The notes under the pieces are model-generated. The model was not told the DNA's origin. It saw only the letters and a program-made list of their open reading frames with translations, and did no database searches. Shown here piece by piece: positions 9,909-64,000 of a stretch of 64,000 bases of DNA (position 1 is the stretch's first letter; each line of letters opens with the position of its first letter). The translations under genes and the position numbers were made by a program. This DNA is from Candidatus Buchananbacteria bacterium (GTDB taxonomy: Bacteria > Patescibacteriota > Patescibacteriia > CAIXNZ01). Where the stretch lies: assembly GCA_014729025.1 (NCBI GenBank), contig WJKP01000014.1, positions 543-64,542 on the forward strand, written 5' to 3'.

Positions 9909-10065
9909 ATTTTTATTTCCTTTTCTTCCCTCCTAGGCTTAATTTTAATTATTATTAAATACTGTTGATATTTTATTTTGACATTACGAGTTATTTTATA
10001 TTATAATTAAAGCAGTATTACTTATTTTTATTATATAAAATCTAATTAATTTAAGCAAAAAAATT

Positions 10066-10620
10066 ATGACAATTTGGGGCATTATAATTATTTTAATTGT
10101 TATTATTGCTGCTTGGCTGATTGCTGTTTATAATTCTTTGATCAAAAGCCGAAATAGAGTTGAAGAAGCCTGGTCTGATATTGATGTTCAATTAAAAAGA
10201 CGCTATGATTTGATTCCTAATTTAATCGAAACAGTCAAAGGCTATGCTTCTCATGAAAAAGAAACTTTTCAAAAAGTAACGGAAGCCAGAAGTCAAGCCA
10301 TGGGAGCAGAAACAATTGAAGAAAAAACACAAGCTGAAAACATGCTTAGTGAAACATTAAAATCACTTTTTGCCGTGGCTGAAAATTATCCTGATTTAAA
10401 AGCCAGCCAAAACTTTTTAAAACTACAGGACGAATTAACTGATACTGAAAATAAAATTCAGGCCGCTCGCCGATTTTATAACGGCAATGTCAGAGATTTT
10501 AATACCAAAATTCAGATTTTCCCAAATAATCTAATTGCCGGTATGCTTGGTTTTAAAAAATATGACTTTTTTGAAGTTGAGACAGAACAAGAAAAAGAAG
10601 TGCCAAAAGTTAAATTTTAA
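10066..10620 (+). CDS. lemA: LemA family protein
   Basis: 184 aa; N-terminal TM then [32 protein letters not shown] typical of LemA. Confidence 0.8.
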
Positions 10621-50949: not shown

Positions 50950-53004
50950 TTATTGATTATTAATAATTGACTGCTCTGCTTCTGCTTTTTCTGTATAACC
51001 TATTTCCTGATCACATTTTGGACAGAAAAAATGCTCACCAGCAATATAACCATGGATCGGACAAATTGAAAACGTCGGCGTAATTGTAAAATAGGGTAAG
51101 TGATAATTTTCAGCGATTTTCTTGATTAATTTTTTGGTTGCTTCTATACTGGGCATTTTTTCACCAATAAAACCATGCATAACCGTACCTCCAGTATAAC
51201 GTGTTTGCAAGCCGTCTTGCAAATCTAAAGCTTCAAAAATATCATCAGTATAATTAACTGGTAATTGTGAAGAATTAGTGTAATAAGGATCAGCGCCTTG
51301 TTCCCGGTAAGCTTTTTCATTAGCGACTATAATATCGGGATATTTTTGTTTATCAGCCTTGGCAAAACGATAAGTCGTACCTTCTCCCGGAGTTGCTTCT
51401 AAATTATATAAATTATTGGTCTCATTTTGATAATCCATTAATTTATCTCTCATAAAATCTAAAATTTCTTGGGCGGCTTTATTACCTTCGGCAGTAGTAA
51501 TATCTTCACCGATTAAATTTAAAACCGCTTCATTCATACCGGCAATACCAATGGTATTAAAATGATTTTTCCAATACTCACCAAATTTACTCTTAATGTC
51601 TTCCAAATAATATTTTGAATAAGGATAAAGACCTTCTTCAGTAAATTTTTCAACAACTTTTCTTTTCAAATCAAGGCTGGTTTGGGCAATTTTCATTATT
51701 ACCTCTAAAGAGTCTAAAAATTCTTTTTTGTCTTTAGCCTGATAACCAAGTCTGGGTAAATTAATTGTGACTACACCAATTGAACCAGTCAATGGATTAG
51801 CCCCAAAAAGCCCGCCACCTCTTTTTCTTAATTCGCGATTATCCAATCTTAAACGACAACACATACTTCGGGCATCTTCTGGTTTCATATCAGAATTAAC
51901 AAAATTGGAAAAATAAGGAATGCCATATTTTGATGTCATCTCCATTATCTTATCAGCGACTTCAGTATCCCATTTAAAATCCTTAGTAATATTATAAGTT
52001 GGAATCGGAAAAGTAAAAACTCTTCCAAACGCATCGCCTTCAGTCATAACTTCAGTAAAAGCCATATTAAAAATATCCATTTCTTTTTGAAATTCTTTAT
52101 AAGTTTTTTCTTGAAACTTACCGCCAATAATTACTGGCTCGTCTTTCATCATTTTAGGCATGCTTAAATCCATTGTAATATTAGTAAACGGCGTTTGAAA
52201 ACCAACTCTGGTCGGTACATTCATATTAAATAAAAATTCCTGAATACATTGTTTAACATCTGCGTATTTAAGATTATCATAAGCAATAAAAGGTGCTAAA
52301 TAAGAATCAAAACTGGAAAAAGCCTGGGCTCCAGCTGTCTCACCTTGTAATGTATAAAAATAATTAACAATTTGACCTAAGGCCGTACGTAAATGTTTAG
52401 GTGGCTTGGAACTGACTTTACCCGATACTCCGCCAAAACCTTTCATTAATAAATCGCGCAAATCCCAACCGCAACAATAAGCTGATAAAGTTTGTAAATC
52501 ATGAATATGTAAATCAGCATTAGCATGGGCATCCCTTACTTCTTCAGGATAAACTTTATGTAACCAATAATGGGCAGAAACAGATGAAGCAACATGATTA
52601 TTCAAACCTTGCAAAGAAAAAGCCATATTAGAATTTTCTTTAACCCGCCAATCACTTTGCACCAAATAACCTTCCATTAAAGCATCAGAATCAATTAATG
52701 ATTTAAAGTCTCTAATTCTGGCATGTTGATCACGGTATAAAATATAAGCTTTAGCTGTCTGAATTTGTTTATTTTTAATCAAAGTCGCCTCCACAATATC
52801 CTGAACTTCTTCAACTGCCGGGATACTTCTTTCATGAAACCTTTTATTCAACTCTTTTTCTACTGCCAACGCCAATTTTTGGGCTTTTTTCTTGCTCGGA
52901 TCACCAATGGCTTCCATTGCTTTATAAATAGCTTCTTCTATTTTAGGCAAATCAAAATCAACAATTCGATCATCGCGTTTTTTTATCTTGAAAATTTTGC
53001 CCAT
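50950..53004 (-). CDS. nrdD: Anaerobic ribonucleoside-triphosphate reductase catalytic subunit (class III), lacking the glycyl-radical tail
   Basis: 684 aa; N-terminal ATP-cone, class III RNR core, C-terminal Zn ribbon (CPIH...CPKC), ends at TAA without the RVCGY motif. Confidence 0.9.
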   Translation of the reverse strand: MGKIFKIKKRDDRIVDFDLPKIEEAIYKAMEAIGDPSKKKAQKLALAVEKELNKRFHERSIPAVEEVQDIVEATLIKNKQIQTAKAYILYRDQHARIRDFKSLIDSDALMEGYLVQSDWRVKENSNMAFSLQGLNNHVASSVSAHYWLHKVYPEEVRDAHANADLHIHDLQTLSAYCCGWDLRDLLMKGFGGVSGKVSSKPPKHLRTALGQIVNYFYTLQGETAGAQAFSSFDSYLAPFIAYDNLKYADVKQCIQEFLFNMNVPTRVGFQTPFTNITMDLSMPKMMKDEPVIIGGKFQEKTYKEFQKEMDIFNMAFTEVMTEGDAFGRVFTFPIPTYNITKDFKWDTEVADKIMEMTSKYGIPYFSNFVNSDMKPEDARSMCCRLRLDNRELRKRGGGLFGANPLTGSIGVVTINLPRLGYQAKDKKEFLDSLEVIMKIAQTSLDLKRKVVEKFTEEGLYPYSKYYLEDIKSKFGEYWKNHFNTIGIAGMNEAVLNLIGEDITTAEGNKAAQEILDFMRDKLMDYQNETNNLYNLEATPGEGTTYRFAKADKQKYPDIIVANEKAYREQGADPYYTNSSQLPVNYTDDIFEALDLQDGLQTRYTGGTVMHGFIGEKMPSIEATKKLIKKIAENYHLPYFTITPTFSICPIHGYIAGEHFFCPKCDQEIGYTEKAEAEQSIINNQ

Positions 53005-53034
53005 TGTTTCAATATTTAATAATTAATTATAATC

Positions 53035-53499
53035 TTATTTTTTTTTCTTTTTTTTAAATACGGCATTGATTTCTTTTTGAAAAGTCGCCAAATCTTTAAA
53101 AGCATGATAAACAGAAGCAAAACGAATATAAGCGACTGGATCTTTCTTTTTTAATTCTTTCATAATAATATCACCTACTTCTTGACTGGTAATCTCAATT
53201 TTTTTGGTAGCTTGAATCTGTCTTTCTATTTTATTAACCAAAATTCGGAAAGCTTCGTCTTTAATCGGCCGTTTTTGAAAAGCTTTTCGCAAACCCTTCT
53301 CTAGCTTCTCACGAGAATAACCTTCTTTATAGCCATTCCGCTTAATAACCATTAATTCCAATAATTCCACTTGCTCATAAGTACTAAAACGAAAACCGCA
53401 TTTCAAACATTCTCGTCTGCGCCTAATAGTAATACCATCAGAAGCCACACGCGAGTCAATTACCTTGGTCTCTTTATAATTACAGACAGGACATTTCAT
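53035..53499 (-). CDS. nrdR: Transcriptional repressor NrdR
   Basis: 154 aa; MKCPVCNYKETKVIDSR zinc ribbon plus ATP-cone. Confidence 0.92.
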   Translation of the reverse strand: MKCPVCNYKETKVIDSRVASDGITIRRRRECLKCGFRFSTYEQVELLELMVIKRNGYKEGYSREKLEKGLRKAFQKRPIKDEAFRILVNKIERQIQATKKIEITSQEVGDIIMKELKKKDPVAYIRFASVYHAFKDLATFQKEINAVFKKKKKK

Positions 53500-53559
53500 A
53501 GCTTTTTTAAAGAAGTAAAAATCTTACAAAATTAATTTATTTTTTATTTTTTCAAATTA

Positions 53560-53575
53560 ACACTATATTTAGTAT
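53560..53575. promoter_or_regulatory. NrdR box 1 (ACACTATATTTAGTAT)
   Basis: Matches the acaCwAtATaTwGtgt NrdR operator consensus; upstream of nrdR-nrdD. Confidence 0.6.
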
Positions 53576-53592
53576 TTCCTGTGATTATTATA

Positions 53593-53608
53593 ACACTATA
53601 TCTAGTAT
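53593..53608. promoter_or_regulatory. NrdR box 2 (ACACTATATCTAGTAT)
   Basis: Near-identical second box 33 bp downstream of box 1 (start to start); tandem arrangement typical of NrdR operators. Confidence 0.6.
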
Positions 53609-53800
53609 GAATAAATCTTTTGTCAATAGCCTGGCAAGGCCTTACTGAAAACTCACTAGAAATTAACTTTAAGACCTAAAAATAGGGTTTTTAAAAGTGT
53701 CGTAAAAATTATTATAAATTATATAATAATAAATCTGTGGATAACTTGCTCAAAATTTATTTTATTTAGTTATGCAAAACTGCACAAATTACAATACTAA

Positions 53801-54181
53801 TTAAAAACAATGCTGCGCTTTTAAATAATCGTCTAAAGTGGGGCTGGCACCTTGTTTAATTTGATTAACTCGTTCGGCGCCTAAAGCTTCTACAGCGCAT
53901 TGTTCTTGTTCCGGTGTAATTTCAGTTGGCAATCCTTGCACGTCAACCCCGGATGTTTCCAACAAAATCTCTTGTTCATTGGAAAGTAAAGGATGATCAT
54001 AACTGCTTGGTTCACCTGATTGTATTTTTGAATAAGCATCTGGAAATTTAGTCACATCAACCCCGTAAGGTTTAATAATAATTAAAGCAATCACGACACC
54101 AATCACTATAATAATAAAAATTACAGCGATGATACCAATTACCATAAAAAATTTTCGCCAAAAATTTGTTTCTTTTGCCAT
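53801..54181 (-). CDS. Hypothetical membrane-anchored protein
   Basis: 126 aa; N-terminal TM, no motif. Confidence 0.35.
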   Translation of the reverse strand: MAKETNFWRKFFMVIGIIAVIFIIIVIGVVIALIIIKPYGVDVTKFPDAYSKIQSGEPSSYDHPLLSNEQEILLETSGVDVQGLPTEITPEQEQCAVEALGAERVNQIKQGASPTLDDYLKAQHCF

Positions 54182-54185
54182 AAGT

Positions 54186-54662
54186 TTAATTTAATAAATA
54201 AAGATAATAATTTAAAACCGCGGCAAAACTGACCCAAGCCAAATACGGGATCAATAAATAAGCGGCTGGCTTAGCTATTTTATAAAAATAAATTATGGTT
54301 AATAATATAAAAAACCATAAAATTAAAATTTCCATAAAACCAGCTAATGGATTTTGTAAATAAAAAAATAAAAACGACCAAGCAATATTTAAAATCCATT
54401 GAATACCAAAAAAAATAAAAGCTTTAGTTTTTACCTCTTGTTTTCCCTTCTTGCTCCAAACTAAATATAAAGCAATACCCATCAACAAAAATAAAGTTGT
54501 CCAAACCGGGCCAAATACCCAGCCCGGCGGATTAAATCCGGGTTTTTCCAGTGTTAAATACCAGGTACTAACTGATTGAGCCGTAAAAATTGAACCAATT
54601 CCTCCGGCTGCCTGACAAATAATCAGCGAGATAATTAGTTTTATCCAATTTATTTTTGACAT
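54186..54662 (-). CDS. tspO: TspO/MBR family tryptophan-rich sensory protein
   Basis: 158 aa, 5 TM, W-rich (WYLTLEKPGFNPPGWVFGPVWTTLFLLMGIALYLVW). Confidence 0.75.
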   Translation of the reverse strand: MSKINWIKLIISLIICQAAGGIGSIFTAQSVSTWYLTLEKPGFNPPGWVFGPVWTTLFLLMGIALYLVWSKKGKQEVKTKAFIFFGIQWILNIAWSFLFFYLQNPLAGFMEILILWFFILLTIIYFYKIAKPAAYLLIPYLAWVSFAAVLNYYLYLLN

Positions 54663-54671
54663 ATTTTTTGT

Positions 54672-55343
54672 TTAATTATTAACACAATCCTGTGGACAAT
54701 TTTCAGCTGTTTCTGCGCAAGGACAGCCACTTCCCAGACAAACAATAGACTGGCAGATACCGTCACCGCACATATCCTGACAAATCAACTCTTCTTCATC
54801 AGTTGTCTCTGATTCTTCAGCGTCAACTAATAAATTATAATCAACTGCCAAATACACTTTATCAACCTCTGAATCTTCATTGGTTTGATAGCCTAAAACA
54901 TTGCCTTCATCTACTGCAACTCCCATAAAATAAGCTTGCAAACCCGGGTTTTGGTTTTTAATTTGCTTGACAATTTCCTGCTCAGCTGAAAAATCAAATT
55001 GACCGGCCTGATCAATATAATCAAAATTATCAATAGCCACATCTTTATCAACCAAACCGCAGCATTCAGTAGCATAAACAATTAAATCTACTTGATCAGC
55101 TAAAAGTTCTCGGATTTTGGTTTTATTATCCTGGTTAACTGCTTGTTCAAATTCTAAAAGTCGACCAGTCGCCTGTGACGGCTGACTCGGTTGATTAAGA
55201 TTGTTATTATTATTCAAATTATTATTGGCTTGATTTAAATTATTAACTTGTTGGTTTAAATTTGAATAAAGATAACCAATAAAAATAACTGTAATAAAAA
55301 TTGCCAAAACAATTAAAACCGTATACAAATAATTTTTAGTCAT
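54672..55343 (-). CDS. Hypothetical anchored protein with Asn/Gln-rich linker and Cys-rich C-terminal module
   Basis: 223 aa; N-terminal TM; C-terminus QDMCGDGICQSIVCLGSGCPCAETAENCPQDC. Confidence 0.35.
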   Translation of the reverse strand: MTKNYLYTVLIVLAIFITVIFIGYLYSNLNQQVNNLNQANNNLNNNNNLNQPSQPSQATGRLLEFEQAVNQDNKTKIRELLADQVDLIVYATECCGLVDKDVAIDNFDYIDQAGQFDFSAEQEIVKQIKNQNPGLQAYFMGVAVDEGNVLGYQTNEDSEVDKVYLAVDYNLLVDAEESETTDEEELICQDMCGDGICQSIVCLGSGCPCAETAENCPQDCVNN

Positions 55344-55414
55344 AATATTTTTCCTAATCCGCCAAAGTTTTATGCAGAAGCGGAAAAAGCTAATTATTAA
55401 TTATATTTTAATAT

Positions 55415-55918
55415 TTATAGTTTTCTAGAATCATAAGCCCAATGTAAAACTGCTTGTCTTTGTTTTTTACGGCAATCCCAGTCTTTTTTAGCACAATTTT
55501 TTTTAATTTGAGCGATATGGCGTTTAAATGATTTCCAACGTTTAATTTGTCGCTCATCGTCAGGACAACGTCTACCTAGATAATACCGGCAATACCATTG
55601 AAACCAGCCACGCGGGTCTTCATGATAAATCCAGCCTTTTTTACGCCAAACTGATAATGGCTGCGAAGCATTAACCCCGAAAAAATTTTTATCAGGATCA
55701 TGTTTTTCCGAATCTAATTTAGCGTTTTTAAACCAGTCTTTAGGAAATTCTGACTGGCAATCAGTCATGTATTTACCGCCAAACACGCCTAATTCTAACA
55801 TTTGCTTGGGAGTTAATTCTGGTTTAAATTCCTGAGCAAAATTTTCACCAGTCGGTTCGGTCAAATAATAAATATAGTTTTTTTGCATTTTATCATTAAC
55901 AACGATTTTTTGTTTCAT
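55415..55918 (-). CDS. Hypothetical protein (Trp/Cys/Arg-rich C-terminus)
   Basis: 167 aa; no recognised motif. Confidence 0.35.
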   Translation of the reverse strand: MKQKIVVNDKMQKNYIYYLTEPTGENFAQEFKPELTPKQMLELGVFGGKYMTDCQSEFPKDWFKNAKLDSEKHDPDKNFFGVNASQPLSVWRKKGWIYHEDPRGWFQWYCRYYLGRRCPDDERQIKRWKSFKRHIAQIKKNCAKKDWDCRKKQRQAVLHWAYDSRKL

Positions 55919-55929
55919 AAAAAGAATTA

Positions 55930-56547
55930 TTATTTGGCCTGGCTAGTAACAGTATAATAACCAAAAATTATTTTAGTAATAAAATCAAGCAATAAATACA
56001 TTAAAGCTGTGATAGCTGGAGTTAAAATTTCAAACCCAGTCGGCGCCAATAACCAAATTATAGGAAAAAAACTCCAGGTTATTGTCACGTACCAGCGAAT
56101 TTGTTTAATGAATTTATTGTCCTTAGCTGAATTTTTATGGATAATTTTTAAAATAATAATAAAAGCCAAACTACTGAGAATGAAAAAAATCCATTTATAA
56201 GGAGCCAAAATTATACTGGCTAAAAATCCGGTTAACATGACGATTGAATTCAAAACTATCATTTCTACAGTTTCAATCTTGGTCTTATTTAAAATCCTGG
56301 CAATTTCATACATTAATAAACCACAGCTTAAAATATAAAATAACCAACGAGTCGGATAAATCGGGTCACCTAAAGGTGAGGCAAAAACACCAACACCAGT
56401 TATTAATACCGCGTAAGAAACAGTAGTAGTAAAAAAAACTAATCGGTTGATAGCCACAAAATCATTTTTTTTCCTTAACAAGGGAAAGAATAAAGCAACT
56501 ATCAAAAATAATAAAAACCCGACTAAAAAAATACTTGTTTGCGTCAT
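55930..56547 (-). CDS. Microbial (type-1 fold) rhodopsin, short schizorhodopsin/AntR-like form
   Basis: 205 aa, 7 TM; helix-F W158-S-F-F-P162-I-I-W165 and helix-G D188-F-I-T-K192 match bacteriorhodopsin WSAYPVVW / DVSAK with identical spacing (W to K = 34); helix C RWLFYILSCGLLMYE gives F/S/E at BR positions 85/89/96. Confidence 0.6.
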   Translation of the reverse strand: MTQTSIFLVGFLLFLIVALFFPLLRKKNDFVAINRLVFFTTTVSYAVLITGVGVFASPLGDPIYPTRWLFYILSCGLLMYEIARILNKTKIETVEMIVLNSIVMLTGFLASIILAPYKWIFFILSSLAFIIILKIIHKNSAKDNKFIKQIRWYVTITWSFFPIIWLLAPTGFEILTPAITALMYLLLDFITKIIFGYYTVTSQAK

Positions 56548-56568
56548 AATTTTTAATTATTTATAAAT

Positions 56569-57150
56569 TTATAATGCTTGTTTTGCTAATTTATTTATTT
56601 TATTTAACCATTTTTGCCTTTTATTTTTGGTTGAATTTTTTATTGGTCCCAAAATTAAAGTTTTAACCGGCCAGACACCAATAAAAAATAAGACTCCGTA
56701 TTTTAATGATTTTAAACCGGAATGACCGAATAATTTATAAAATAAAACCAAACCGTCTACAGTAGTTATTAATCTGGCTGTTTTACCTTTTAAATAACGT
56801 TTAGGTAAAGGTAATAATGAATTTTCTTTATACTTAAAAGCAAAACCAGGTAAAATTGTCCTGTCAATAAAACCTTTTAAAAGCGCCGGATATGAATACC
56901 ACCAGGTCGGAAAAATGAACACCAAATGATCGGCCCAGTCTATTTTTTGCTGCATTTTAACCAAATCAGGTTCTAGTTTTTGGATTTTTTTATAACCTTT
57001 ATATAAAATGGGATCAAATTTTAATTCTCCCAAATAAACTAATTCGACATTATAACCTGATTTTTTAGCAGCTTTTTTATAATGACGGGCAATCGCTCCG
57101 TTAAAACTGTTTTTATCCGGATGACCTAAAATTATCAAGATTTTTTTCAT
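56569..57150 (-). CDS. Flavodoxin-fold NAD(P)H-dependent oxidoreductase (quinone reductase-like)
   Basis: 193 aa; MKKILIILGHPDKNSFNGAIA N-terminus typical of NAD(P)H dehydrogenase (quinone)/MdaB-type proteins. Confidence 0.7.
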   Translation of the reverse strand: MKKILIILGHPDKNSFNGAIARHYKKAAKKSGYNVELVYLGELKFDPILYKGYKKIQKLEPDLVKMQQKIDWADHLVFIFPTWWYSYPALLKGFIDRTILPGFAFKYKENSLLPLPKRYLKGKTARLITTVDGLVLFYKLFGHSGLKSLKYGVLFFIGVWPVKTLILGPIKNSTKNKRQKWLNKINKLAKQAL

Positions 57151-57201
57151 AATAATGTTATAATTAAATTATAACATATAATAACTATTTAACTTAAACT
57201 C

Positions 57202-57540
57202 ATGAAAACACAAAAACGACTTAGTATCGCTTTACTGACCGGTACGGGACTGGGTATTTTATGTATTATCGGTGTTGGTGTCAGGCTAGGATTTGCTGGT
57301 AATGAATTGTTTTTGCTGGCTACTTGGTATAATCGTTTATTAATGGGTTTGGTAATTGGTTTGGCCGGTGCCTGGCAATTAAGTAAAAGTAAAGCTAATC
57401 CTTTATTACGCGGTCTTGTCCTGGGTTTAATGGTTAGTTTAGCTTTATTTTTAAGTACTGAATTAAAAGATCCTGTTGGCTTTTTAGCTGGTATTGTCTA
57501 TGGCATTATTATTGATTTTGTTGCCAGTAAATACGCTTAA
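57202..57540 (+). CDS. Hypothetical 3-TM membrane protein
   Basis: 112 aa; followed by hairpin plus T-run at about 57550-57580. Confidence 0.4.
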   Translation: MKTQKRLSIALLTGTGLGILCIIGVGVRLGFAGNELFLLATWYNRLLMGLVIGLAGAWQLSKSKANPLLRGLVLGLMVSLALFLSTELKDPVGFLAGIVYGIIIDFVASKYA

Positions 57541-57601
57541 TAATTTTTCAATAAAAAAACTCCTGCTTTTTTTAAAAAAACAGGAGTTTTTGTTTTAGCT
57601 T

Positions 57602-57811
57602 CTATTTTCTTTTGACTGCAACTGTTGCCAAATAAATTGTGTACAAAGCAGCTAAACCAACCAAGGCATACACTACTCGGGAGATAGCTGACATGTCACC
57701 AAAAAGAGTTGCCACCAAATCAAAATTAAACAAACCAACTAATCCCCAATTAAGACCGCCAACAATCACTAAAATTAAGGCGATCACATCTAAAGCATTA
57801 AGCTTTTGCAT
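57602..57811 (-). CDS. DUF378-family small membrane protein
   Basis: 69 aa; LILVIVGGLNWGLVGLFNFDLVATLFG signature. Confidence 0.6.
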   Translation of the reverse strand: MQKLNALDVIALILVIVGGLNWGLVGLFNFDLVATLFGDMSAISRVVYALVGLAALYTIYLATVAVKRK

Positions 57812-57869
57812 AAGTTTACGGGTTAATTAATTATATTAATATTATAGCAAAAAAACAGTAAAATAGATA

Positions 57870-58268
57870 TTAATCTTTATTTTTATCAAATTTTAAGGCT
57901 AAAGAATTAATACAATAACGTTTATTGGTTGGCTGAGGGCCGTCTTTAAATAAATGGCCCAAATGGCTACCACATTGCGCGCAAACAACTTCTACCCTGT
58001 CCATGCCATGACTTTTATCAGGTTGCAATTTAACATTGCCTTGTTGTATCACATCATAAAAACTGGGCCAGCCAGTACCTGAATCAAATTTTGTTTCTGA
58101 AGAAAATAAAGGGTTATTGCAAGCCGCACAACTATAAATACCAGTTGCTTTATTGCGCAGTAATTTACCGGAAAAAGCCGGTTCAGTGCCTTTTTCGCGC
58201 AAAATATGGTATTGTTCAGAACTTAATTGTTCTTGCCAATCTTGTTTATTTTTTTTGATTTGTTTCAT
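57870..58268 (-). CDS. msrB: Peptide-methionine (R)-S-oxide reductase
   Basis: 132 aa; CxxC...CxxC zinc site and GTGWPSF active-site motif. Confidence 0.9.
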   Translation of the reverse strand: MKQIKKNKQDWQEQLSSEQYHILREKGTEPAFSGKLLRNKATGIYSCAACNNPLFSSETKFDSGTGWPSFYDVIQQGNVKLQPDKSHGMDRVEVVCAQCGSHLGHLFKDGPQPTNKRYCINSLALKFDKNKD

Positions 58269-58277
58269 ATTTAATGG

Positions 58278-58772
58278 TTAAAAGCCGCAAAGTTTGGCTT
58301 TTAATTTATGTTTTTTATAATAATCCTGATGATATTCTTCAGCCGGATAAAACTCAGCTACTGGTTTGATTTCAGTAACAATCTCTTTTTTATATTGGTC
58401 GGATTGAGCTAAATTTTTTTTTGATTGTTTGGCCAACATTTTTTGTTTTTGATTATGATAAAAAATAACTGAACGGTACTGGCTGCCAATATCAAGACCT
58501 TGTTGGTTTAATTGGGTTGGATCATGAATTTCCCAAAATTTTTCCAATAATTGTTCGTACGATATTTTATTGGGATCATAAATTACCTGGCAAACTTCTG
58601 CATGACCGGTCTGGCCGGTTGAGACTTGTTTATAGCTGGGATCTTTAACGTGTCCGCCCATAAATCCGACGGTTGTTGCTTTAACGCCTTTAAACTGATC
58701 AAAAGCCTGCTGTACGTGCCAAAAACAACCAGCGCCAAAAGTTGCTTTTTGTAAATTAGTTTTATTGGACAT
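58278..58772 (-). CDS. msrA: Peptide-methionine (S)-S-oxide reductase
   Basis: 164 aa; GCFWHVQ active site. Confidence 0.9.
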   Translation of the reverse strand: MSNKTNLQKATFGAGCFWHVQQAFDQFKGVKATTVGFMGGHVKDPSYKQVSTGQTGHAEVCQVIYDPNKISYEQLLEKFWEIHDPTQLNQQGLDIGSQYRSVIFYHNQKQKMLAKQSKKNLAQSDQYKKEIVTEIKPVAEFYPAEEYHQDYYKKHKLKAKLCGF

Positions 58773-58844
58773 GATTTTTATTTAAATTATTATAATCAAA
58801 TCGCCAATTAATCGGATTATTGGCAATATTCATTTTTTTTATTT

Positions 58845-59477
58845 TTAAATTAAATTTTTCAGCTCTTTACCTGATTGTAGGATCCTATCAGCCTGTGAAA
58901 AATCCTGGTCTTGAGTTGTCTTGGTTGGTATAACATAACAAGTCATACCGGCTTTTTTGGCTGCCTGTAAACCGATGCTGGTATCTTCAATTACTAAACA
59001 ATCTTTAGGTTCAAGGTTTAATTTGGCAGCTGCTTTTAAATAACAATCAGGCGCTGGTTTTCTTTGCTCACAATCTTCAAAACTAACAATCGCCTGAAAA
59101 ACATTTTGCAAACCGGCTCTTTGGATAATTTTATCAGTGCTGGGTCTGGCTGACGAAGTCACTAAGCCTAAAGTAATATTTTGCTGAGATAGTTTTTTAA
59201 TCAAATCAATAATCTCATTAAATAAAGGTGCTGTTTCAATACCTTGTAAATATAATTCACGTTTGATTTGCCGGTATTGGGCAAAATCAAAATCAGGATA
59301 TTTTTGTTTAAAATATTCCTGATAATCTACCGGATGAGTGCCAATAATCAGATCTTTTTCCTTTTCAGTCAGCTCAATACCTTGCTGGCTAAAAGCTTTA
59401 ATAGCTGAATCAAGGTTAATTGGTTCAGTATCAATAATCACGCCGTCCCGATCAAAAATAATAGCTTTAAATTGCAT
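58845..59477 (-). CDS. HAD-superfamily hydrolase (beta-phosphoglucomutase-like)
   Basis: 210 aa; motif I FDRDGVIIDTE, motif II VTSS, motif IV EDTSIG. Confidence 0.8.
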   Translation of the reverse strand: MQFKAIIFDRDGVIIDTEPINLDSAIKAFSQQGIELTEKEKDLIIGTHPVDYQEYFKQKYPDFDFAQYRQIKRELYLQGIETAPLFNEIIDLIKKLSQQNITLGLVTSSARPSTDKIIQRAGLQNVFQAIVSFEDCEQRKPAPDCYLKAAAKLNLEPKDCLVIEDTSIGLQAAKKAGMTCYVIPTKTTQDQDFSQADRILQSGKELKNLI

Positions 59478-59488
59478 AAAATATTTCT

Positions 59489-60076
59489 TTAAATTATATT
59501 AAATAAAATTAAAATACCCAATATTAACAAGCCCAAAATTGCGATTTCTTTTTTGTATTTTAATTTGTAAAGTTTCTCTGAAAAATAAATCACCAAAATA
59601 ATCTGCAATATAGTGGCTATGATAATACCACTGGCCACTGCCAGTTTTAAATAAAAATTAAGATTAACAAATAGCCCGGCAAATACAATGCTGTCATCAA
59701 TCAAAGTCACAAAAGCCACAATAAAGCCAGCCAAAATTGTTTGGAAAAATTTTTGTAAAGAAACTTTTTTTATGACTTTTTTTTCAATTTTACTGCTTTT
59801 TTTAGCTTTAAAAACATCAAAGTAAACCAAACCAGCTAAAATAAAAATCAACCCGGCACTGATTATTTTGGTATAAGCAAAAGAGCTTAAAACCCAAGCA
59901 AAAATTATACTGATTACAATCACCAGTAAAACCGCTAAAAAATTACCAATAGAAAAGGCGATCTTGTCTTTACGGGTGCGGGTTAAACTGGCAATCAAAG
60001 GGATTCTGGTCAAAAAATCATCAAAACTGGCAATTGTTTTGGTAAATAAACCTAAAATAATGTATTTATAAAACAT
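59489..60076 (-). CDS. Hypothetical polytopic membrane protein
   Basis: 195 aa; 5-6 TM. Confidence 0.35.
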   Translation of the reverse strand: MFYKYIILGLFTKTIASFDDFLTRIPLIASLTRTRKDKIAFSIGNFLAVLLVIVISIIFAWVLSSFAYTKIISAGLIFILAGLVYFDVFKAKKSSKIEKKVIKKVSLQKFFQTILAGFIVAFVTLIDDSIVFAGLFVNLNFYLKLAVASGIIIATILQIILVIYFSEKLYKLKYKKEIAILGLLILGILILFNII

Positions 60077-60079
60077 TAA

Positions 60080-61309
60080 TTATTTTTTCAATAATTTAAA
60101 AATTAAAATTAAAAGTAACAGCAAAATCACAAAAACGCCAAGCAAAACCAGATAAAACATAGAACCTGTCAGCTGACCGGTTTCTTTTACAAAATCAGTC
60201 TTTTTATCTTTAAAACTAAAATCTTTAATGGCTACTTTTCGAAAACCGTCTTGTTCATAAATTTGGGCGACTTTTTCTCCGTCCGGACTCAGCACGCCGA
60301 CTTGTTCAATATAATCATTATCACTGTAAAGATACCGACTAAAATCACAACAAGGTTTTTGTTCACTTTCACCTAATTGTTCGATCTGATCAGACAATAA
60401 ATCATACTGATAAACCGGGTAATTCACATAAAGATCCTGATCAGCTGAAAATTTTAAATAATCCAAACTTAAACGGTCAAAAGTTAGCAGTAATTCATTA
60501 CGGTTTTGGGAAAAATAATCATCCAAATCAATTGTCTTGGTAATTGATTTTTGAGTATTATAAATTTTGATTTCTTGTAAAGAAGCGTAAATCAAATAAT
60601 TGTTTTGCGGTGACCAAATCGGTTCAGTAATCAAATAACCAGCCACGTTTTCCAATTGTCTGACTTTGTTATTTTGCAAATCATGTAATTCAACCTGCGG
60701 TTGCTGGTTTTTAAATTTTATAACTGCCACGTAATTACTGTCAGCTGACCAGACCGGATTAAAATATCCTTGATACTGTAGAAATTGCTCTATTTCAGGC
60801 TGGTATTTAGTTAAAATCTCGTTACGGTCAACTGTTAGTTCGGTTTGATTAGTATCAAGTTCTTGCAAAGCCAAAACCATGGCTAATAAATCAGTCAAAT
60901 CCTGGGAAAAAGTATCGATTTTATAACAACTGCCAATATTGACTGGTTCGCCGCCTTCATCACCATTAGACAAGATACAATTATCTTTTAATCTTAAATT
61001 TATAATATTAATGTCATTGCCATAAGCAATCGTTGAATCAATTAAAATCTTTTTATCAGTTAATTGGTCGGTTTTGACTAGTTTTTCTCTAGCATAGTCA
61101 AGCACTGCGACATTATTATTAAGCCTGGCAAAAGCTTCGGTTGAAGTATAGCCGCTAAAATAATTTAGATAAACCGAACCGCTTTGAAAAATATCACTGC
61201 CATAAACAGTAGCTTGGCTGGGTAAAACTATACCAAACATTAAAACAAAAATAATAAAACATAAAATTATTTTTTTCATAAATTTGTAATTAATAATTAT
61301 TATTTTCAA
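60080..61309 (-). CDS. Secreted/anchored TolB-like (PD40) beta-propeller protein
   Basis: 409 aa; signal peptide, WSADSNYVAV / WSPQNNYLIYAS PD40-like repeats, C-terminal TM. Confidence 0.4.
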   Translation of the reverse strand: MKIIIINYKFMKKIILCFIIFVLMFGIVLPSQATVYGSDIFQSGSVYLNYFSGYTSTEAFARLNNNVAVLDYAREKLVKTDQLTDKKILIDSTIAYGNDINIINLRLKDNCILSNGDEGGEPVNIGSCYKIDTFSQDLTDLLAMVLALQELDTNQTELTVDRNEILTKYQPEIEQFLQYQGYFNPVWSADSNYVAVIKFKNQQPQVELHDLQNNKVRQLENVAGYLITEPIWSPQNNYLIYASLQEIKIYNTQKSITKTIDLDDYFSQNRNELLLTFDRLSLDYLKFSADQDLYVNYPVYQYDLLSDQIEQLGESEQKPCCDFSRYLYSDNDYIEQVGVLSPDGEKVAQIYEQDGFRKVAIKDFSFKDKKTDFVKETGQLTGSMFYLVLLGVFVILLLLLILIFKLLKK

Positions 61310-61375
61310 TAAATATTCTTTGTACTACTGCCTAATTCCTAATACCTATTGCCTGCCTTAATTTTAACTTTAATT
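61248..61375. repeat. 128-bp direct repeat, copy 1 (covers the first about 20 codons and upstream region of CDS 60080..61309)
   Basis: Identical by eye to 62521..62648. Confidence 0.8.
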
Positions 61376-61394
61376 ATAAGTAAAGTCAAAGATA

Positions 61395-61423
61395 TTGACA
61401 AAAATTAAAATATGTGCTATGAT
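61395..61423 (+). promoter_or_regulatory. Promoter module 1: AGTCAAAG-TTGACA-17-TATGAT
   Basis: Consensus -35, 17-nt spacer, good -10; followed by SD AAAAAGGAGGAAAA and ATG at 61485. Confidence 0.5.
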
Positions 61424-61484
61424 ATAATAATTCATCCTCCTTTACCCTGATTAAAAAGGGATTGTCCCAAAAAAAGGAGGAAAA

Positions 61485-61772
61485 ATGGAACTTCATCTCG
61501 GATTGGAAAATCAGCAGCTGTACAAAGGCTGCGAGGTAACTGAAGTAGCAGGGCGCATGACCCTGACTACTCCGGTTGAGGAAGCGGTCAACATTGTTGG
61601 CCGCAACATTAAGGAAATAGTGGACGCAACAGAGGATCGGGAAGAAATCGTTCTGACTGGTCCTATGGCTGTGTGGAGCTACTTAGTAGTTTTCCACGCA
61701 GTAGTTCACTCTTTCAAAAAAGTCTTTTATGCTGACGGCAAAGGCGATAAAGTCTTGATTGCCATGCATTAA
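61485..61772 (+). CDS. Hypothetical 95-aa protein, GC-rich relative to the genome (roughly 46-48% vs about 30%)
   Basis: Strong SD, intrinsic terminator downstream; no recognised motif. Confidence 0.5.
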   Translation: MELHLGLENQQLYKGCEVTEVAGRMTLTTPVEEAVNIVGRNIKEIVDATEDREEIVLTGPMAVWSYLVVFHAVVHSFKKVFYADGKGDKVLIAMH

Positions 61773-61783
61773 ACAGGTCCGAC

Positions 61784-61813
61784 GAGGGGAACCTTTAATC
61801 CCCTCTTTTTTTA
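61784..61813 (+). terminator. Rho-independent terminator
   Basis: GAGGGGA-loop-TCCCCTC then TTTTTTTT. Confidence 0.65.
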
Positions 61814-61883
61814 TTGGCAAAATTATTTCAAATAAAATTTTAAAAAAACAATTGCTGTTTTAATTTTAGCCAAAGTCAAAGCT

Positions 61884-61912
61884 TGACAATTTATAAAAAT
61901 AAGGTTAAATTA
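61884..61912 (+). promoter_or_regulatory. Promoter module 2: AGTCAAAGC-TTGACA-17-TAAATT
   Basis: Same architecture as modules 1 and 3; followed by SD AAGGAGGAAA and ATG at 61963. Confidence 0.5.
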
Positions 61913-61962
61913 ATATATACGATAATTTTGTAAAAATGATCTTTTTAAAAAAGGAGGAAATC

Positions 61963-62025
61963 ATGGGTAAAGGCGCTAAGTCAAAGGTGAAAAAAATTCA
62001 AGCAAAGATAAAATTTAAATTTTAA
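61963..62025 (+). CDS. 20-aa lysine-rich peptide MGKGAKSKVKKIQAKIKFKF
   Basis: Consensus promoter, perfect SD, terminator immediately after the stop codon; function unknown. Confidence 0.4.
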   Translation: MGKGAKSKVKKIQAKIKFKF

Positions 62026-62056
62026 GCCGCCTGATAAAAAATCAGGCGGCTTTTAC
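62026..62056. terminator. Bidirectional terminator GCCGCCTGAT-loop-ATCAGGCGGC shared by convergent small ORFs
   Basis: 10-bp perfect stem with A-run on one side and T-run on the other. Confidence 0.65.
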
Positions 62057-62062
62057 TTGCTG

Positions 62063-62233
62063 TCATCTACGCGAATACTTTTTTTTATCGCCAGTGCATC
62101 CAAGTATTGTTTTTATACGGCCGCTACCACCACAGGCTGAACAAGTTGTAGTGGTACAGCTATTACTGTCACCACGACTGATAACCTGTTTCTTGCCAGA
62201 ACCACCACAGGAAGAACAACTTTTCCATCCCAT
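62063..62233 (-). CDS. 56-aa DnaJ-type zinc-finger (CxxCxGxG x2) small protein
   Basis: Hand translation MGWKSCSSCGGSGKKQVISRGDSNSCTTTTCSACGGSGRIKTILGCTGDKKKYSRR; SD GAGGAGG 8 nt upstream; below ORF-track cutoff. Confidence 0.5.
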   Translation of the reverse strand: MGWKSCSSCGGSGKKQVISRGDSNSCTTTTCSACGGSGRIKTILGCTGDKKKYSRR

Positions 62234-62520
62234 CTTAATTACCTCCTCAGATGATTTAAAAAATTTAACTATTTCACTTTTTCCATCTATATATAACCTC
62301 CTTCTTAAAAAATAAAGCTAAAAAATGCCCCTTATTAAGGTTACATATAATAAATTAATTTGTCAAGCCCAAAAATAAAATAGCTCATAAGAACTATTTT
62401 TCATATTTTATTTTTATTATAACAAAACAAACATCATATTTTAAAAACCATCTGAAAGATGATATACTTTCTTAGTAATTATCAATTTTATGCAAGTACC
62501 AAGAGGTAAAAATAGATGAT

Positions 62521-62648
62521 AAAATAATAAAACATAAAATTATTTTTTTCATAAATTTGTAATTAATAATTATTATTTTCAATAAATATTCTTTGTACTA
62601 CTGCCTAATTCCTAATACCTATTGCCTGCCTTAATTTTAACTTTAATT
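62521..62648. repeat. 128-bp direct repeat, copy 2 (carries a truncated duplicate of the 5' end of CDS 60080..61309)
   Basis: Identical by eye to 61248..61375. Confidence 0.8.
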
Positions 62649-62665
62649 TTAGTCAAAGTTAAAGC

Positions 62666-62694
62666 TTGACAAAACATAAAGATGATGTTAAATT
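62666..62694 (+). promoter_or_regulatory. Promoter module 3: AGTCAAAGTTAAAGC-TTGACA-17-TAAATT
   Basis: Followed by SD AAAAAAGGAGGAAACA and ATG at 62740. Confidence 0.5.
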
Positions 62695-62739
62695 AGACTA
62701 TTCAATCTTAAACAAAGAACCTTAAAAAAGGAGGAAACA

Positions 62740-63627
62740 ATGTTTAGAAACACATGGGCGATTTGGTTATTAATCTTTCAAATTGGATTGCATTTCCTAA
62801 ACCTTTGGGTCTTACCCCATCGGAACGGCGTGCCAGTTTCTAATCTCAGGATAATCATGAACTTAGTGGCGGGTATTGGGACTATCATATTCGCCTACTG
62901 GGCGTGGCGACAGATAAGCAGAATCTACCTACATTACAAGGTATTGCGCCTTTTCCCCCAGATAATTGGGCATGAACCGGTTTTGGGCGAATTATTTTTC
63001 GCTGCTATCAGTATGAGTGGTTTGGAAATCTATGAGAAATCGAAGCCACATTTTGAACAGAACGAACGAAATATACAGAGAGATAAAAAAATCTCCGCTA
63101 AATTACGAAAAGACCGGCAACGTCTAAAACAACAAACCTTTAAGCAAGCTGAAGTTTATTGGCAAGACCTGGCTGAACTGCATGCTTGGAAAGTTTTTCT
63201 TCAAGAAATCGTACCTGAAACTCTGGCAATTGATATTCAGCCTATCCTGGATAATATTCAGCTCAGCCAAGAGTCACGGCAAGATATCCGTAAGGTCAGG
63301 GACGACCTACAAGCGTGGCAGGACAGAGGCACCTTAAACGGACCCTTTGACTTGGAGCTTTTTAGCCAAGTAGAACACGCCGGCAGGAAATTTGCTGAAT
63401 TGATAGATAAGGCTATTATTGAAAACGACCGGATTAATCAGCTTCGGGCCAGACTCGCTCAGCAAGCTGGAGCCATGCTCAATGATCCCAGTTTAAAGCT
63501 CAAACTGGGCCCTAAAGACATAGAACTTCTGAAAGAGGTCAAAACCAAAGCCAGTCAACCACTTAAACCACGCGACCTCAGAAAAATACAATATAACTTT
63601 GAACGGGTTGCTAAGACTCTAAACTAA
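62740..63627 (+). CDS. Hypothetical membrane-anchored protein with coiled-coil C-terminal region; GC-rich relative to the genome
   Basis: 295 aa; 2-3 N-terminal TM helices (W-rich), Arg/Gln-rich helical remainder; GC about 45%. Confidence 0.5.
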   Translation: MFRNTWAIWLLIFQIGLHFLNLWVLPHRNGVPVSNLRIIMNLVAGIGTIIFAYWAWRQISRIYLHYKVLRLFPQIIGHEPVLGELFFAAISMSGLEIYEKSKPHFEQNERNIQRDKKISAKLRKDRQRLKQQTFKQAEVYWQDLAELHAWKVFLQEIVPETLAIDIQPILDNIQLSQESRQDIRKVRDDLQAWQDRGTLNGPFDLELFSQVEHAGRKFAELIDKAIIENDRINQLRARLAQQAGAMLNDPSLKLKLGPKDIELLKEVKTKASQPLKPRDLRKIQYNFERVAKTLN

Positions 63628-64000
63628 TTAAGCCCAAACCTCAAACCCAAAGCGTCCCTTCTTATAAGGTGGCGCTTTTTTATTTTAAATAAAATTTCCA
63701 ACAACCAAGGTCTAATTACTAACGCCCAATGCCTAACAACTTATCTAGTTTCATACATCTCAACTGCTTCGTCAAGATCATCAATATCATGTTCATACAT
63801 TAAATCAGCTACTTCTTCAGCTGTATAGCGATCCAAGTTATAATTATCCATTAGTTCTAAAATTGTTTCTGGGTCAGGCATAAAAAAATTTTAATGAGAT
63901 TATTTTTATCTTGTGTCATTTTTTATTTCAACCACTTGTCCAGCAACCAATCGATGTCTTGCTTTTTTTGCCAGTTATGCTGCATTTTTTTGATTAGCTT

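Follow-up and report, generated by a model that had tools for sequence, protein, structure and literature searches.

Morons of the Hendrix type, known from prophages, carry their own sigma-70 promoter and factor-independent terminator, differ in composition from their neighbours, stand between unrelated genes and vary among close relatives. In hypervariable or replacement islets, differing cargo is exchanged between the same conserved flanks by homologous or homology-facilitated illegitimate recombination; of the two breakpoints, one falls in shared sequence and the second is illegitimate, and a truncated gene stub remains. Integron cassette arrays and att-flanked cis-mobilisable elements consist of small single-gene units with a recurring imperfect palindrome and flanking direct repeats. 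Csx3/Crn3 of A. fulgidus (AF_1864; PDB 6yud, 3wzi; PMC7371418) is a protein of ~95-105 aa, for which a PADLOC HMM exists.

Traits of all four recur at one locus in the window, the whole 64-kb stretch of DNA analysed here, which stems from a MAG of Candidatus Buchananbacteria (candidate phyla radiation, CPR). Comparison of sister genomes and of the histories of a Csx3-like gene and a 295-aa gene suggests that the region is probably a hypervariable accessory-gene islet of moron-like units, with a history of cassette replacement, in a CPR chromosome. It is a known kind of genome feature, small and strain-variable, and not a new system. In contrast to morons, its units lie outside any recognisable prophage between housekeeping genes (NrdD/NrdR, MsrA/MsrB, HAD), share one recurrent bidirectional promoter module, and contain the only genes led by a Shine-Dalgarno sequence (SD): GGAGG occurs within 25 nt upstream of the start in four islet ORFs and in 0 of 46 native ORFs. 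Unlike in replacement islets, the promoter module itself seems to supply the portable homology, and it is also present with such genes in distant CPR lineages. Integrons and att-flanked elements differ in that here each unit has its own promoter, no integrase turned up, a promoter accounts for the palindrome, and relative to the sister genome L166 the between-repeat segment does not amount to a unit insertion.

History and cargo were compared in three genomes, the window genome and the sister genomes L166 and L178, which are ~87% identical to it in nucleotide sequence. At the locus, L166 is 87.7% identical to and collinear with window positions 51978-62012 and again 63671-63905, and differs in between. 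Collinearity of L178 stops at 61305, followed by a different 78-aa gene and the end of the contig. The left flank is common to all three genomes and the cargo right of the 399-aa gene differs, a turnover of genes that agrees with the hotspot proposed in the initial annotation. The islet would be bounded by two conserved genes, one for a beta-propeller of 399 aa and one for a protein of 46 aa, and its units would be autonomous, each with a promoter and a consensus SD ahead of the ORF and an intrinsic terminator after it. The proposed cargo comprises a stand-alone Csx3/Crn3-like protein, a 20-codon stub, a zinc-finger miniprotein and a 295-aa all-helical protein. The features are as follows (strand in brackets, where one applies):

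60080..61279 (-): 399-aa gene, secreted/membrane beta-propeller (TolB/PD40-like), conserved left anchor; L166 and L178 orthologues 86% identical
61248..61375: repeat copy 1, 128 bp exact, similarity extending to 61391 (self-comparison of the window)
61360..61390 (-): motif of module 1, the minus-strand promoter of the 399-aa gene, TTGACT (61389-61384) -17- TAAAAT (61366-61361)
61395..61423 (+): promoter P1 of the 95-aa gene, TTGACA-17-TATGAT, TG-extended, 11/12 consensus
61435..61481 (+): 5' UTR hairpin, CCUCCUUU paired with the SD AAAGGAGG, -16.2 kcal/mol, z only -1.3
61485..61772 (+): gene of the predicted 95-aa Csx3/Crn3-like protein (structure, profile and alignment evidence), GC3 0.49
61784..61812 (+): intrinsic terminator T1, hairpin of -13 kcal/mol, z -1.5
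61850..61911 (+): module 2, motif with decayed minus-strand -10 (AGCAAT), then P2; orthologous module in L166
61963..62025 (+): 20-codon ORF (MGKGAKSKVKKIQAKIKFKF), 5' stub of the L166 260-aa gene; L166 homology ends at 62012
62024..62052: GC-rich 12-bp hairpin, potential terminator for both strands, -21.3/-22.2 kcal/mol, z -6.4/-7.0
62063..62233 (-): 56-aa miniprotein, rich in cysteine, with its own SD and a pair of DnaJ zinc-finger-like CxxCGGSG motifs
62234..62520: AT-rich spacer, 16-28% GC, unique to the window genome
62521..62648: repeat copy 2, with remnant ORF (self-comparison of the window)
62633..62694 (+): module 3, motif, then P3; perfect palindrome, minus-strand TTAACT-17-TAAAAT
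62740..63627 (+): 295-aa protein gene, GC3 0.44; AlphaFold model all-helical, mean pLDDT 68.9
63649..63684 (+): intrinsic terminator T3, hairpin of -13.9 kcal/mol, z -3.5
63680..63734: degenerate third copy, 38/55 nt, matching the left repeat part at 61300-61354, right edge of the islet; score reached in 1/500 shuffles
63741..63881 (-): 46-aa acidic protein gene, conserved right anchor; L166 homology resumes at 63671

The three modules of promoter, SD, ORF and terminator were confirmed in the window, with the correction that module 2 heads only the 20-codon stub and no full ORF. The element first described as a promoter, "AGTCAAAG...TTGACA", is a bidirectional sigma-70 promoter, in which AGTCAA forms the -35 box of the divergent half. 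Minus-strand TTGACT-17-TAAAAT stands back to back with plus-strand TTGACA-17-TAAATT or TATGAT, with 3-5 bases between the -35 boxes. P2 (61883-61911) and P3 (62666-62694) both read TTGACA-17-TAAATT (10/12). The motif forms an imperfect palindrome in module 1 (TTTAACTTT-N10-AAAGTCAAA, 61363-61390) and a perfect one in module 3 (TTTAACTTT-N10-AAAGTTAAA, 62636-62663). A search of the 64 kb for further copies returned AAAAGGAGGAA three times, only at the three modules. Nine instances of the module were collected from four genomes. TTGACT/TTAACT-17-TAAAAT is retained in all seven that have a divergent minus-strand gene, and both instances lacking such a gene have a decayed -10. Each promoter half probably serves as an A+T-rich upstream element for the other. 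The module also accompanies such genes in distant CPR genomes, which argues against the original view of a simply native promoter. The 5' UTR hairpin of the 95-aa gene, partly conserved in L166, may mask its SD. As a separate observation, conservation of the motif, spacer included, goes beyond the strict need of a promoter and leaves room for a regulator or a recombination site.

The 128-bp duplication 1.27 kb downstream is exact, positions 61248-61375 being identical to 62521-62648 (128/128), and similarity runs on to 61391/62664 (144 nt, 97%); the longest exact repeat in 10 shuffled windows is 16-18 nt. As described before, the repeat holds the start and upstream region of the neighbouring gene, namely the minus-strand promoter, 5' UTR and first 10 codons (MKKIILCFII) of the 399-aa gene, which itself shows weak TolB propeller and PD40 matches. 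The start of this gene is ATG 61279, as in NCBI and both orthologues, and not TTG 61309 as first assigned. The truncated gene start said to be left by the duplication is present at copy 2 as a remnant ORF of 26 codons (62472-62552, minus strand), MKKIILCFII plus 16 codons. Exact identity of the copies breaks off abruptly inside the 10-nt palindrome spacer (61375|61376). Because identity is complete and then falls abruptly within the motif spacer, the repeat is judged recent. It is probably a by-product of cassette replacement, and it does not represent an att-flanked element or a simple tandem duplication. L166 has the 128-bp region in single copy and part of the degenerate third copy. Between the modules, the 56-aa ORF has a GC3 of 0.30, at the upper end of native values. 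In the AT-rich spacer, a perfect SD (62297-62303) precedes the minus-strand mini-ORF MEKVK* (62269-62286). The compared loci contain no homologue of the miniprotein, nor of the segment 62013-62520.

Several other origins of the repeat can be weighed against this reading. The initial annotation favoured tandem duplication of a promoter-plus-gene unit, the cargo of the second copy being replaced later. Such a history would fit a direct repeat with a period of 1273 bp, as well as the right part of module 3, which is 80% identical to module 2 over 65 nt and has the same SD context. However, the supposed units share only 128-144 bp of this period, and outside the repeat it is module 2, not module 1, that module 3 resembles. 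Moreover, the left junction lies inside coding sequence instead of at a unit boundary, and L166 displays the pre-event arrangement, where the 95-aa gene stands between modules 1 and 2 with no duplication and no second unit, which makes tandem duplication decidedly unlikely. Alternatively, the palindrome TTTAACTTT-N10-AAAGTYAAA could be the core site of a recombinase encoded elsewhere, strand exchange in the spacer inserting or swapping cassettes of promoter, ORF and terminator, much as in integron-like or cis-mobilisable att-flanked elements. The breakpoint within the spacer would suit such a system, as would the degenerate repeat copy bounding the right side of the islet, and in L001 and L166 the islets have Y1/HUH transposase-like ORFs as neighbours. 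Across four genomes the motif precedes cargo genes that differ, and its copies concentrate in accessory islets: all three copies of the window lie within 2.4 kb, and L001 and L182 have two each. Yet the minus-strand promoter accounts for its conservation, the -10 decaying exactly where the divergent gene is absent, and site-specific exchange would not copy 116 bp of left flank with coding sequence. In addition, L166 possesses the between-repeat segment without duplication, no recombinase gene was found in or beside the islet, and the motif is uncommon, with one contig, already known, recovered from 241 million metagenome records; a dedicated cassette system is thus unlikely. An assembler might also have threaded the 128-bp sequence of two strain variants twice. 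The end of the 65,992-bp MAG contig is a few kb away at most, the repeat length is close to k=127, a common assembler k, and the sister contig of L178 breaks at the same place. But the left junction of copy 2 (…GATGAT|AAAATAAT…) joins sequences sharing no k-mer-length stretch on the left, which excludes graph mis-traversal and implies that the junction is present in the reads. With degraded similarity extending past the exact run, and the stub at 61963-62025 as independent evidence of a real rearrangement, an artefact is very improbable.

The two ORFs initially reported at 45-48% GC do deviate from their surroundings, with measured values of 0.465 (95-aa ORF) and 0.430 (295-aa ORF) slightly below that range. 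Their GC3 of 0.49 and 0.44 exceeds that of 48 background ORFs (GC 0.32; GC3 0.233 +/- 0.031, maximum 0.296), a background that lacks truly highly expressed native genes since the window contains no ribosomal-protein genes. The consensus SD, absent from native ORFs, likewise sets them apart. If these were native genes expressed at very high level, GC3, promoters and SDs would reflect selection for expression and not foreign origin. Consensus promoters, SDs and terminators would be expected on this account, as would a 95-aa gene that is syntenic in L166 and has diverged in step with its flanks; part of the GC excess stems from amino-acid composition (GC1 0.60), and over 14 loci the GC of the 95-aa family follows that of the flanks (r 0.89). 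However, the 260-aa gene of L166 has the same promoter and SD at a GC3 of 0.23, so that strong expression signals alone do not explain high GC3. The excess seen here (0.49 vs 0.23) is absent or reversed in family members of L168 (GC3 0.116, flank GC 0.224) and L009 (GC3 0.34, flank GC 0.342). The 295-aa family is very rare (8 representatives among 1.84 billion proteins), its homologue in L001 sits within a defence-type island, and the locus differs between sister genomes. There is accordingly little likelihood that native expression explains the locus.

For the preferred reading, an islet of moron-like units with replaced cassettes, comparison with L166 shows that both genomes inherited the 399-aa gene, together with module 1, the Csx3-like gene and module 2, from their ancestor. 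Module 2 of L166 drives the 260-aa gene, whose start aligns with ~50 nt at the 5' end of the 20-codon ORF; the window keeps the 20-aa stub only. In the window lineage, the gene behind module 2 and all downstream of it (3.95 kb in L166) were replaced by 1.66 kb, a piece holding a distant homologue of higher GC behind a module-2-like promoter of its own. The C-termini of the 260-aa and 295-aa proteins are homologous (35% over 69 aa, E 1e-6), and the hydrophobic N-terminal helices of the 295-aa model were read by eye as putative transmembrane segments. Foreign capture, as first suggested, may apply to the 295-aa gene, which took the place of a distant homologue with native GC3; it does not hold for the 95-aa gene as a recent event, which is syntenic in L166. 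During or after the replacement, the 128-bp patch would have been copied in front of module 3, with one end in the homologous promoter motif, inside the palindrome spacer, and the other illegitimate. The modules common to the units would provide portable homology for cassette exchange.

The 95-aa gene occupies the same place in L166, and codon identity among conserved residues between the two genomes (0.82) matches that of its neighbours (0.82-0.85); it has been passed on vertically since the split. The AlphaFold model of its product (pLDDT 95.5) retrieves A. fulgidus Csx3/Crn3 (6yud) as top Foldseek match in the PDB (probability 0.97, E 0.016, TM 0.43), followed by CARF/SAVED ring nucleases, and the PADLOC Csx3 HMM matches with E 9.6e-6; Pfam and a PDB sequence-profile search gave no Csx3 match. 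By hhalign, at a probability of only 10%, T58-G59, W64, H71, D84 and H95 correspond to S44-G45, W50, H57, D69 and H80 of AfCsx3, several of which are conserved or catalytic according to PMC7371418. These residues are invariant in the 95-aa family; K86, aligned to R71, is R in most members, and the alignment is shifted by one residue at the H60 position. The protein is therefore predicted to be a remote Csx3/Crn3-like member of a large CPR family, which is spread over CPR phyla at 60-74% identity and also found on viral contigs. In contrast to Csx3/Crn3, it stands alone: neither type III CRISPR-Cas nor another cyclic-oligoadenylate synthase was seen nearby, the window has no CRISPR arrays, and no Cas families are among the Pfam annotations retrieved around the homologues. 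The predicted activity would be that of a Mn-dependent phosphodiesterase, or binder, of cyclic oligoadenylates. If so, the protein would switch off or counteract immune signalling by cyclic nucleotides.

The window contains a hypervariable islet of moron-like units at about 61248–63700, between a minus-strand gene for a 399-aa β-propeller protein (60080–61279) and a minus-strand gene of 46 aa (63741–63881). The direct repeat described in the initial annotation was reproduced exactly: 61248–61375 equals 62521–62648 over 128 of 128 bp, with weaker likeness extending to 61391/62664 (144 nt, 97%), whereas the longest exact repeat in 10 shuffles of the window was only 16–18 nt. The repeat comprises the first 10 codons and the upstream region of the 399-aa gene, whose start is ATG 61279 in agreement with the NCBI annotation and both orthologues. 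In copy 2 the remnant ORF reads MKKIILCFII followed by 16 unrelated codons, and at the right end of copy 1 identity ceases at 61375/61376, inside the spacer of a palindromic motif. The left part of the repeat recurs in degenerate form as a third copy (63680–63734, 38/55 nt, a score reached by 1 of 500 shuffles), which lies at the right limit of the variable region, directly past the terminator of a 295-aa gene; the sister genome L166 has part of this copy too. The ORFs between the repeats are a Csx3/Crn3-like gene of 95 aa, a 20-aa stub and a gene for a 56-aa zinc-finger-like protein.

The islet is built from three promoter modules, written CCTGCCTTAATTTTAMCTTTAAT…AAGTCAAA-TTGACA (also cited as AGTCAAAG…TTGACA), in which a promoter scan located the following elements:

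61395–61423, plus strand: promoter P1, TTGACA-17-TATGAT
61883–61911, plus strand: promoter P2, TTGACA-17-TAAATT
62666–62694, plus strand: promoter P3, TTGACA-17-TAAATT

These modules precede the 95-aa gene (61485–61772, plus strand), the 20-codon stub and the 295-aa gene (62740–63627, plus strand), respectively. The promoter/Shine-Dalgarno (SD)/terminator units of the initial annotation hold: AAAAGGAGGAA is found 3' of each of the three promoters and nowhere else in the 64 kb, and the three terminator hairpins of the islet give good folds. Native genes lack an SD, with GGAGG located at most 25 nt from the start in 0 of 46 ORFs left of the islet; in contrast, four islet ORFs have a strong SD, with the full consensus AAAGGAGGA (islet 61470–62740 versus native starts 1–61300).

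The 31-nt motif 5' of each plus-strand -35 box reads TTGACT-17-TAAAAT on the minus strand, and the module is accordingly annotated as a predicted bidirectional promoter. Nine instances were gathered: three from the window, two from L166 and two each from L001 and L182, two further genomes with homologues of the 295-aa gene and a locus GC of 36–39%. Wherever a divergent minus-strand gene is present, TTGACT (once TTAACT), the 17-nt spacer and TAAAAT are retained (7/7 instances). The two module-2 instances lie 3' of a co-directional terminator with no gene to drive, and their -10 box has decayed to AGCAAT/GCAATT. Retention with a divergent gene and decay without one is what a promoter predicts. 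The -35 boxes stand back to back with 3–5 bases between them (AGTCAA-AGC-TTGACA), and each half, through its A+T-rich core, is inferred to double as upstream element for its partner, which would be why the spacer is also conserved. Since the motif is in addition an imperfect palindrome, TTTAACTTT-N10-AAAGTYAAA, it may contain a putative regulator site.

Copies of the module beyond those of the window exist in L166, L001 and L182; within the window all three copies (3/3) lie inside the islet, and the motif is rare elsewhere. A scan of 241 million metagenome records with a strict 29-nt motif returned one contig, already known. The matches of a loose 22-nt motif in genome and viral contigs were lone chance matches in unrelated AT-rich genomes and were discarded.

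Several smaller features accompany these modules. The 5' UTR preceding the Csx3-like gene (61435–61481) has a stretch, CCUCCUUU, able to base-pair with the SD AAAGGAGG, with a small hairpin enclosed between the two, and this pairing may mask the SD; the fold, partly conserved in L166, was rejected as insignificant against shuffled sequences (z -1.3). A mini-ORF of five codons, MEKVK*, with a perfect SD (62269–62303, minus strand) is located 36 nt 5' of the 56-aa gene (62063–62233, minus strand), and may encode a leader peptide or have arisen by chance. In L001 (11268–12554), a second module copy is followed by an AcrVA2-like (PF26125) gene on one side and faces a DUF2196 gene on the other; an inserted GC-rich hairpin separates its motif from the TTGACA box. 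ORFs resembling Y1/HUH transposases (IS200-like, MPNH[VI]HGII motif) adjoin the islets of L001 (9287–9898, minus strand) and L166 (14641–14958, minus strand), and in L001 the module's minus-strand promoter drives this ORF.

Comparison with the sister genomes revealed how the islet differs between close relatives. L166 (JGI Ga0401366_0000566) is collinear with window 51978–62012 at 87.7% identity; it has a single copy of the 128-bp region and the 95-aa gene at the same place, with a GC at third codon positions (GC3) of 0.487. Its module 2 leads into a 260-aa gene of native GC3 (0.23). The 20-codon ORF of the window matches the first ~50 nt of this gene, then ends in a terminator, and by this match is identified as a stub of it. 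Homology to L166 returns at 63671 with the 46-aa gene. The intervening DNA measures 3.95 kb in L166, with genes of 260, 603, 131, 89 and 75 aa, and 1.66 kb in the window, where a hairpin, the 56-aa zinc-finger gene and an AT-rich spacer are followed by repeat copy 2, module 3 and the 295-aa gene; segment 62013–62520 has no match among the fetched loci. The 260-aa and 295-aa proteins share a homologous C-terminus, and the window therefore holds a replacement by a distant, GC-richer relative. In the part that extends past the 128-bp repeat, module 3 shares 80% identity with module 2 and does not resemble module 1. In the second sister genome, L178 (GCA_964531215.1), collinearity extends only up to 61305, and is followed by an unrelated 78-aa cysteine-rich gene and the contig end (CAZHFK010000016.1 1–445; 444 bp past the 399-aa gene).

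Thus, the cargo varies among relatives at this locus, as the initial annotation had anticipated, but the 95-aa gene is no recent capture. Its proportion of identical codons with L166 is 0.82, the same as that of its neighbours, which indicates that it was present before the split from L166 and has not been exchanged since; excess synonymous conservation was rejected on the same figure. The L166 orthologue (9930–10228) displays ATA at the orthologous start, with no ATG, GTG or TTG, and the gene caller chose an internal GTG (75 aa). The ATA may be a rare initiator or mark an early pseudogene.

The compositional deviation that had made two islet ORFs appear foreign is evident in GC3, which amounts to 0.49 in the 95-aa and 0.44 in the 295-aa ORF, compared with a mean of 0.233 (sd 0.031, max 0.296) in 48 other ORFs. 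Such a deviation, also typical of morons, could reflect native genes with high expression. This explanation is weakened because the L166 gene behind the same promoter and SD keeps native GC3; no ribosomal-protein gene was found as an expression control among the 10 window ORFs scanned. Across 14 loci the GC of the Csx3-like gene tracks that of its flanks (r 0.89), which it exceeds by 7.7 points on average and by 14–16 points in the window and L166.

The 95-aa, 295-aa and 399-aa proteins are identical to the hypothetical proteins GF365_01390, GF365_01400 and GF365_01385 of a Candidatus Buchananbacteria MAG. The homology search proposed for the 95-aa ORF led to a large family in the candidate phyla radiation (CPR) of more than 400 clusters, 60–74% identical, with named members from Buchananbacteria, Saccharibacteria and Falkowbacteria; no precomputed Pfam domain was found in family members. 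The AlphaFold model is confident (pLDDT 95.5), and its best, though weak, PDB fold match (E 0.016, TM 0.43) is Csx3/Crn3 of A. fulgidus (AfCsx3) with cA4, followed by CARF/SAVED ring nucleases. The Csx3 HMM PDLC01040 of PADLOC matches with an E of 9.6e-6 (residues 29–95 versus profile 15–81 of 84), and a CARF-HEPN-Csx3 fusion model matches through its Csx3 domain (E 5.5e-5), whereas Pfam and NCBIfam showed no Csx3 family at E≤1 and a PDB profile search gave no match. By hhalign (probability only 10%), T58-G59, W64, H71, D84, K86 and H95 align with S44-G45, W50, H57, D69, R71 and H80 of AfCsx3, the sequence of which was confirmed against the PDB, and H75 is one position off AfCsx3 H60. The aligned residues are invariant in 35 family members except position 86 (K here, R in most). 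In AfCsx3, H57, H60, D69, R71, H80 and the S44-G45 cA4-binding loop have mostly been reported as conserved, and H60 and D69 are essential for cleavage (eLife study, PMC7371418). On the weak fold match, the PADLOC HMM and the aligned residues, the protein is filed as a putative divergent, apparently orphan Csx3/Crn3 homologue.

No CRISPR array was found in the 64-kb window, and the Pfam annotations retrieved around the homologues (loci L005, L007 and L009–L011) contain no Cas families; on these data no association with type III CRISPR-Cas (Cas10 cyclase) is apparent. The family is encoded on 11 IMG/VR contigs (L167–L177), one of which carries a large terminase gene 2 kb from the family member (L171 1592–3073). 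A tblastn search of the 95-aa and 295-aa ORFs against cultured phages gave no match, and a survey of cultured phages found AcrIII-1, Csx16 and Csx20, with Crn3 absent from its listed phage hits (PMC12409355). A supposed 128-aa partner gene beside Csx3-like genes in three loci proved to be a coincidence of length, the three proteins being unrelated.

Homology searches of the 295-aa ORF, likewise called for at the outset, yielded only eight relatives among 1.84 billion representatives, and nothing in Pfam, NCBIfam, PADLOC or PHROGs. Its AlphaFold model is all-helical (pLDDT 68.9), with hydrophobic N-terminal helices that are putatively transmembrane by eye, and a fold search returned generic helical bundles only. 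The homologue in L001 has the same module 5' of it and lies amid AcrVA2-like, AAA_15/21, HD, Vsr, HNH and methylase genes. The 56-aa protein contains two CxxCGGSG motifs and is DnaJ zinc-finger-like.

Taken together, the initial observation and its reading as a hotspot of gene turnover stand, but the tandem duplication with swapped cargo does not. A plain tandem duplication would place a whole unit twice, side by side, whereas only 128–144 bp of the 1273-bp period are repeated, and it is contradicted by the arrangement in L166. An assembly artefact would fit the position of the islet near the end of its MAG contig, which is 65,992 bp long, and the contig end in L178 suggests difficult assembly of the locus or heterogeneity within populations; an artefact is unlikely, however, given the novel sequence at the left junction of copy 2. 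Cassette replacement probably left the 128-bp repeat behind as a recent by-product. The patch copied before module 3 would comprise the minus-strand promoter, 5' UTR and first 10 codons of the 399-aa gene, its right end lying in the homologous motif, within the palindrome spacer, and its left end being illegitimate. Homology-facilitated illegitimate recombination or one-ended repair would account for such a patch.

The most interesting rival is a site-specific cassette system. However, a recombinase is lacking, with no recombinase-like ORF such as an intI within ~10 kb left of the islet, and the duplicated left flank would remain unexplained. Nor is the segment between the repeats an att-flanked element, for L166 possesses its left two-thirds (module 1, Csx3-like gene, module 2) and no duplication. 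In contrast to the cassettes of integron arrays, which are promoterless and end in attC, each islet unit has its own consensus promoter. The units resemble morons in having their own promoter and factor-independent terminator around a single ORF, but differ in that there is no prophage: the flanks encode NrdD/NrdR, TspO, rhodopsin, MsrA/MsrB and HAD proteins, and islet proteins have no PHROG matches except one family of unknown function. In its architecture the islet is a variation on two known kinds, morons and replacement islets, and the Csx3-like gene is a new and divergent, apparently orphan member of a known family.

Elsewhere in the window, synteny with an annotated sister contig places a Bac_rhodopsin-family protein (55930–56547), TspO, NrdD/NrdR and MsrA/MsrB left of the islet (50950–58772). 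ORF 14765–15754, without a Pfam match and with a GC of 0.41 at the top of the native ORFs, contains 21-nt in-frame tandem repeats at 14909–15274 (3–6 copies, 81–88% matches). A giant ORF of 2637 aa and then one of 1070 aa occupy 32996–40909 (minus strand). Rfam detected three tRNAs only in the window and nothing in the islet region.

Beyond its role as a promoter, the module could be the mark, in recombination or regulation, of a system specific to CPR bacteria; such a system would reshuffle SD-led accessory cassettes and control them jointly in otherwise SD-less genomes. The Csx3/Crn3-like family, a CPR-wide orphan family of more than 400 clusters, also found on phage contigs and with no cognate Cas10 seen, could be a counter-defence factor degrading cyclic nucleotides. 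These proposals are not mutually exclusive, and jointly they are regarded as quite improbable. If the 95-aa protein does degrade cyclic oligoadenylates with no resident type III system, this would point to counter-defence or non-CRISPR signalling; the episymbiont or its mobile elements would then counter cyclic-oligoadenylate immune signalling. The stand-alone family deserves attention as large, highly conserved and present in CPR genomes as well as viral contigs. The locus itself exemplifies, at sequence resolution, how genes turn over in an ultrasmall CPR bacterium, where one intergenic hotspot swaps autonomous units that import their own SD, terminator and putative bidirectional promoter into a genome whose native genes lack an SD.
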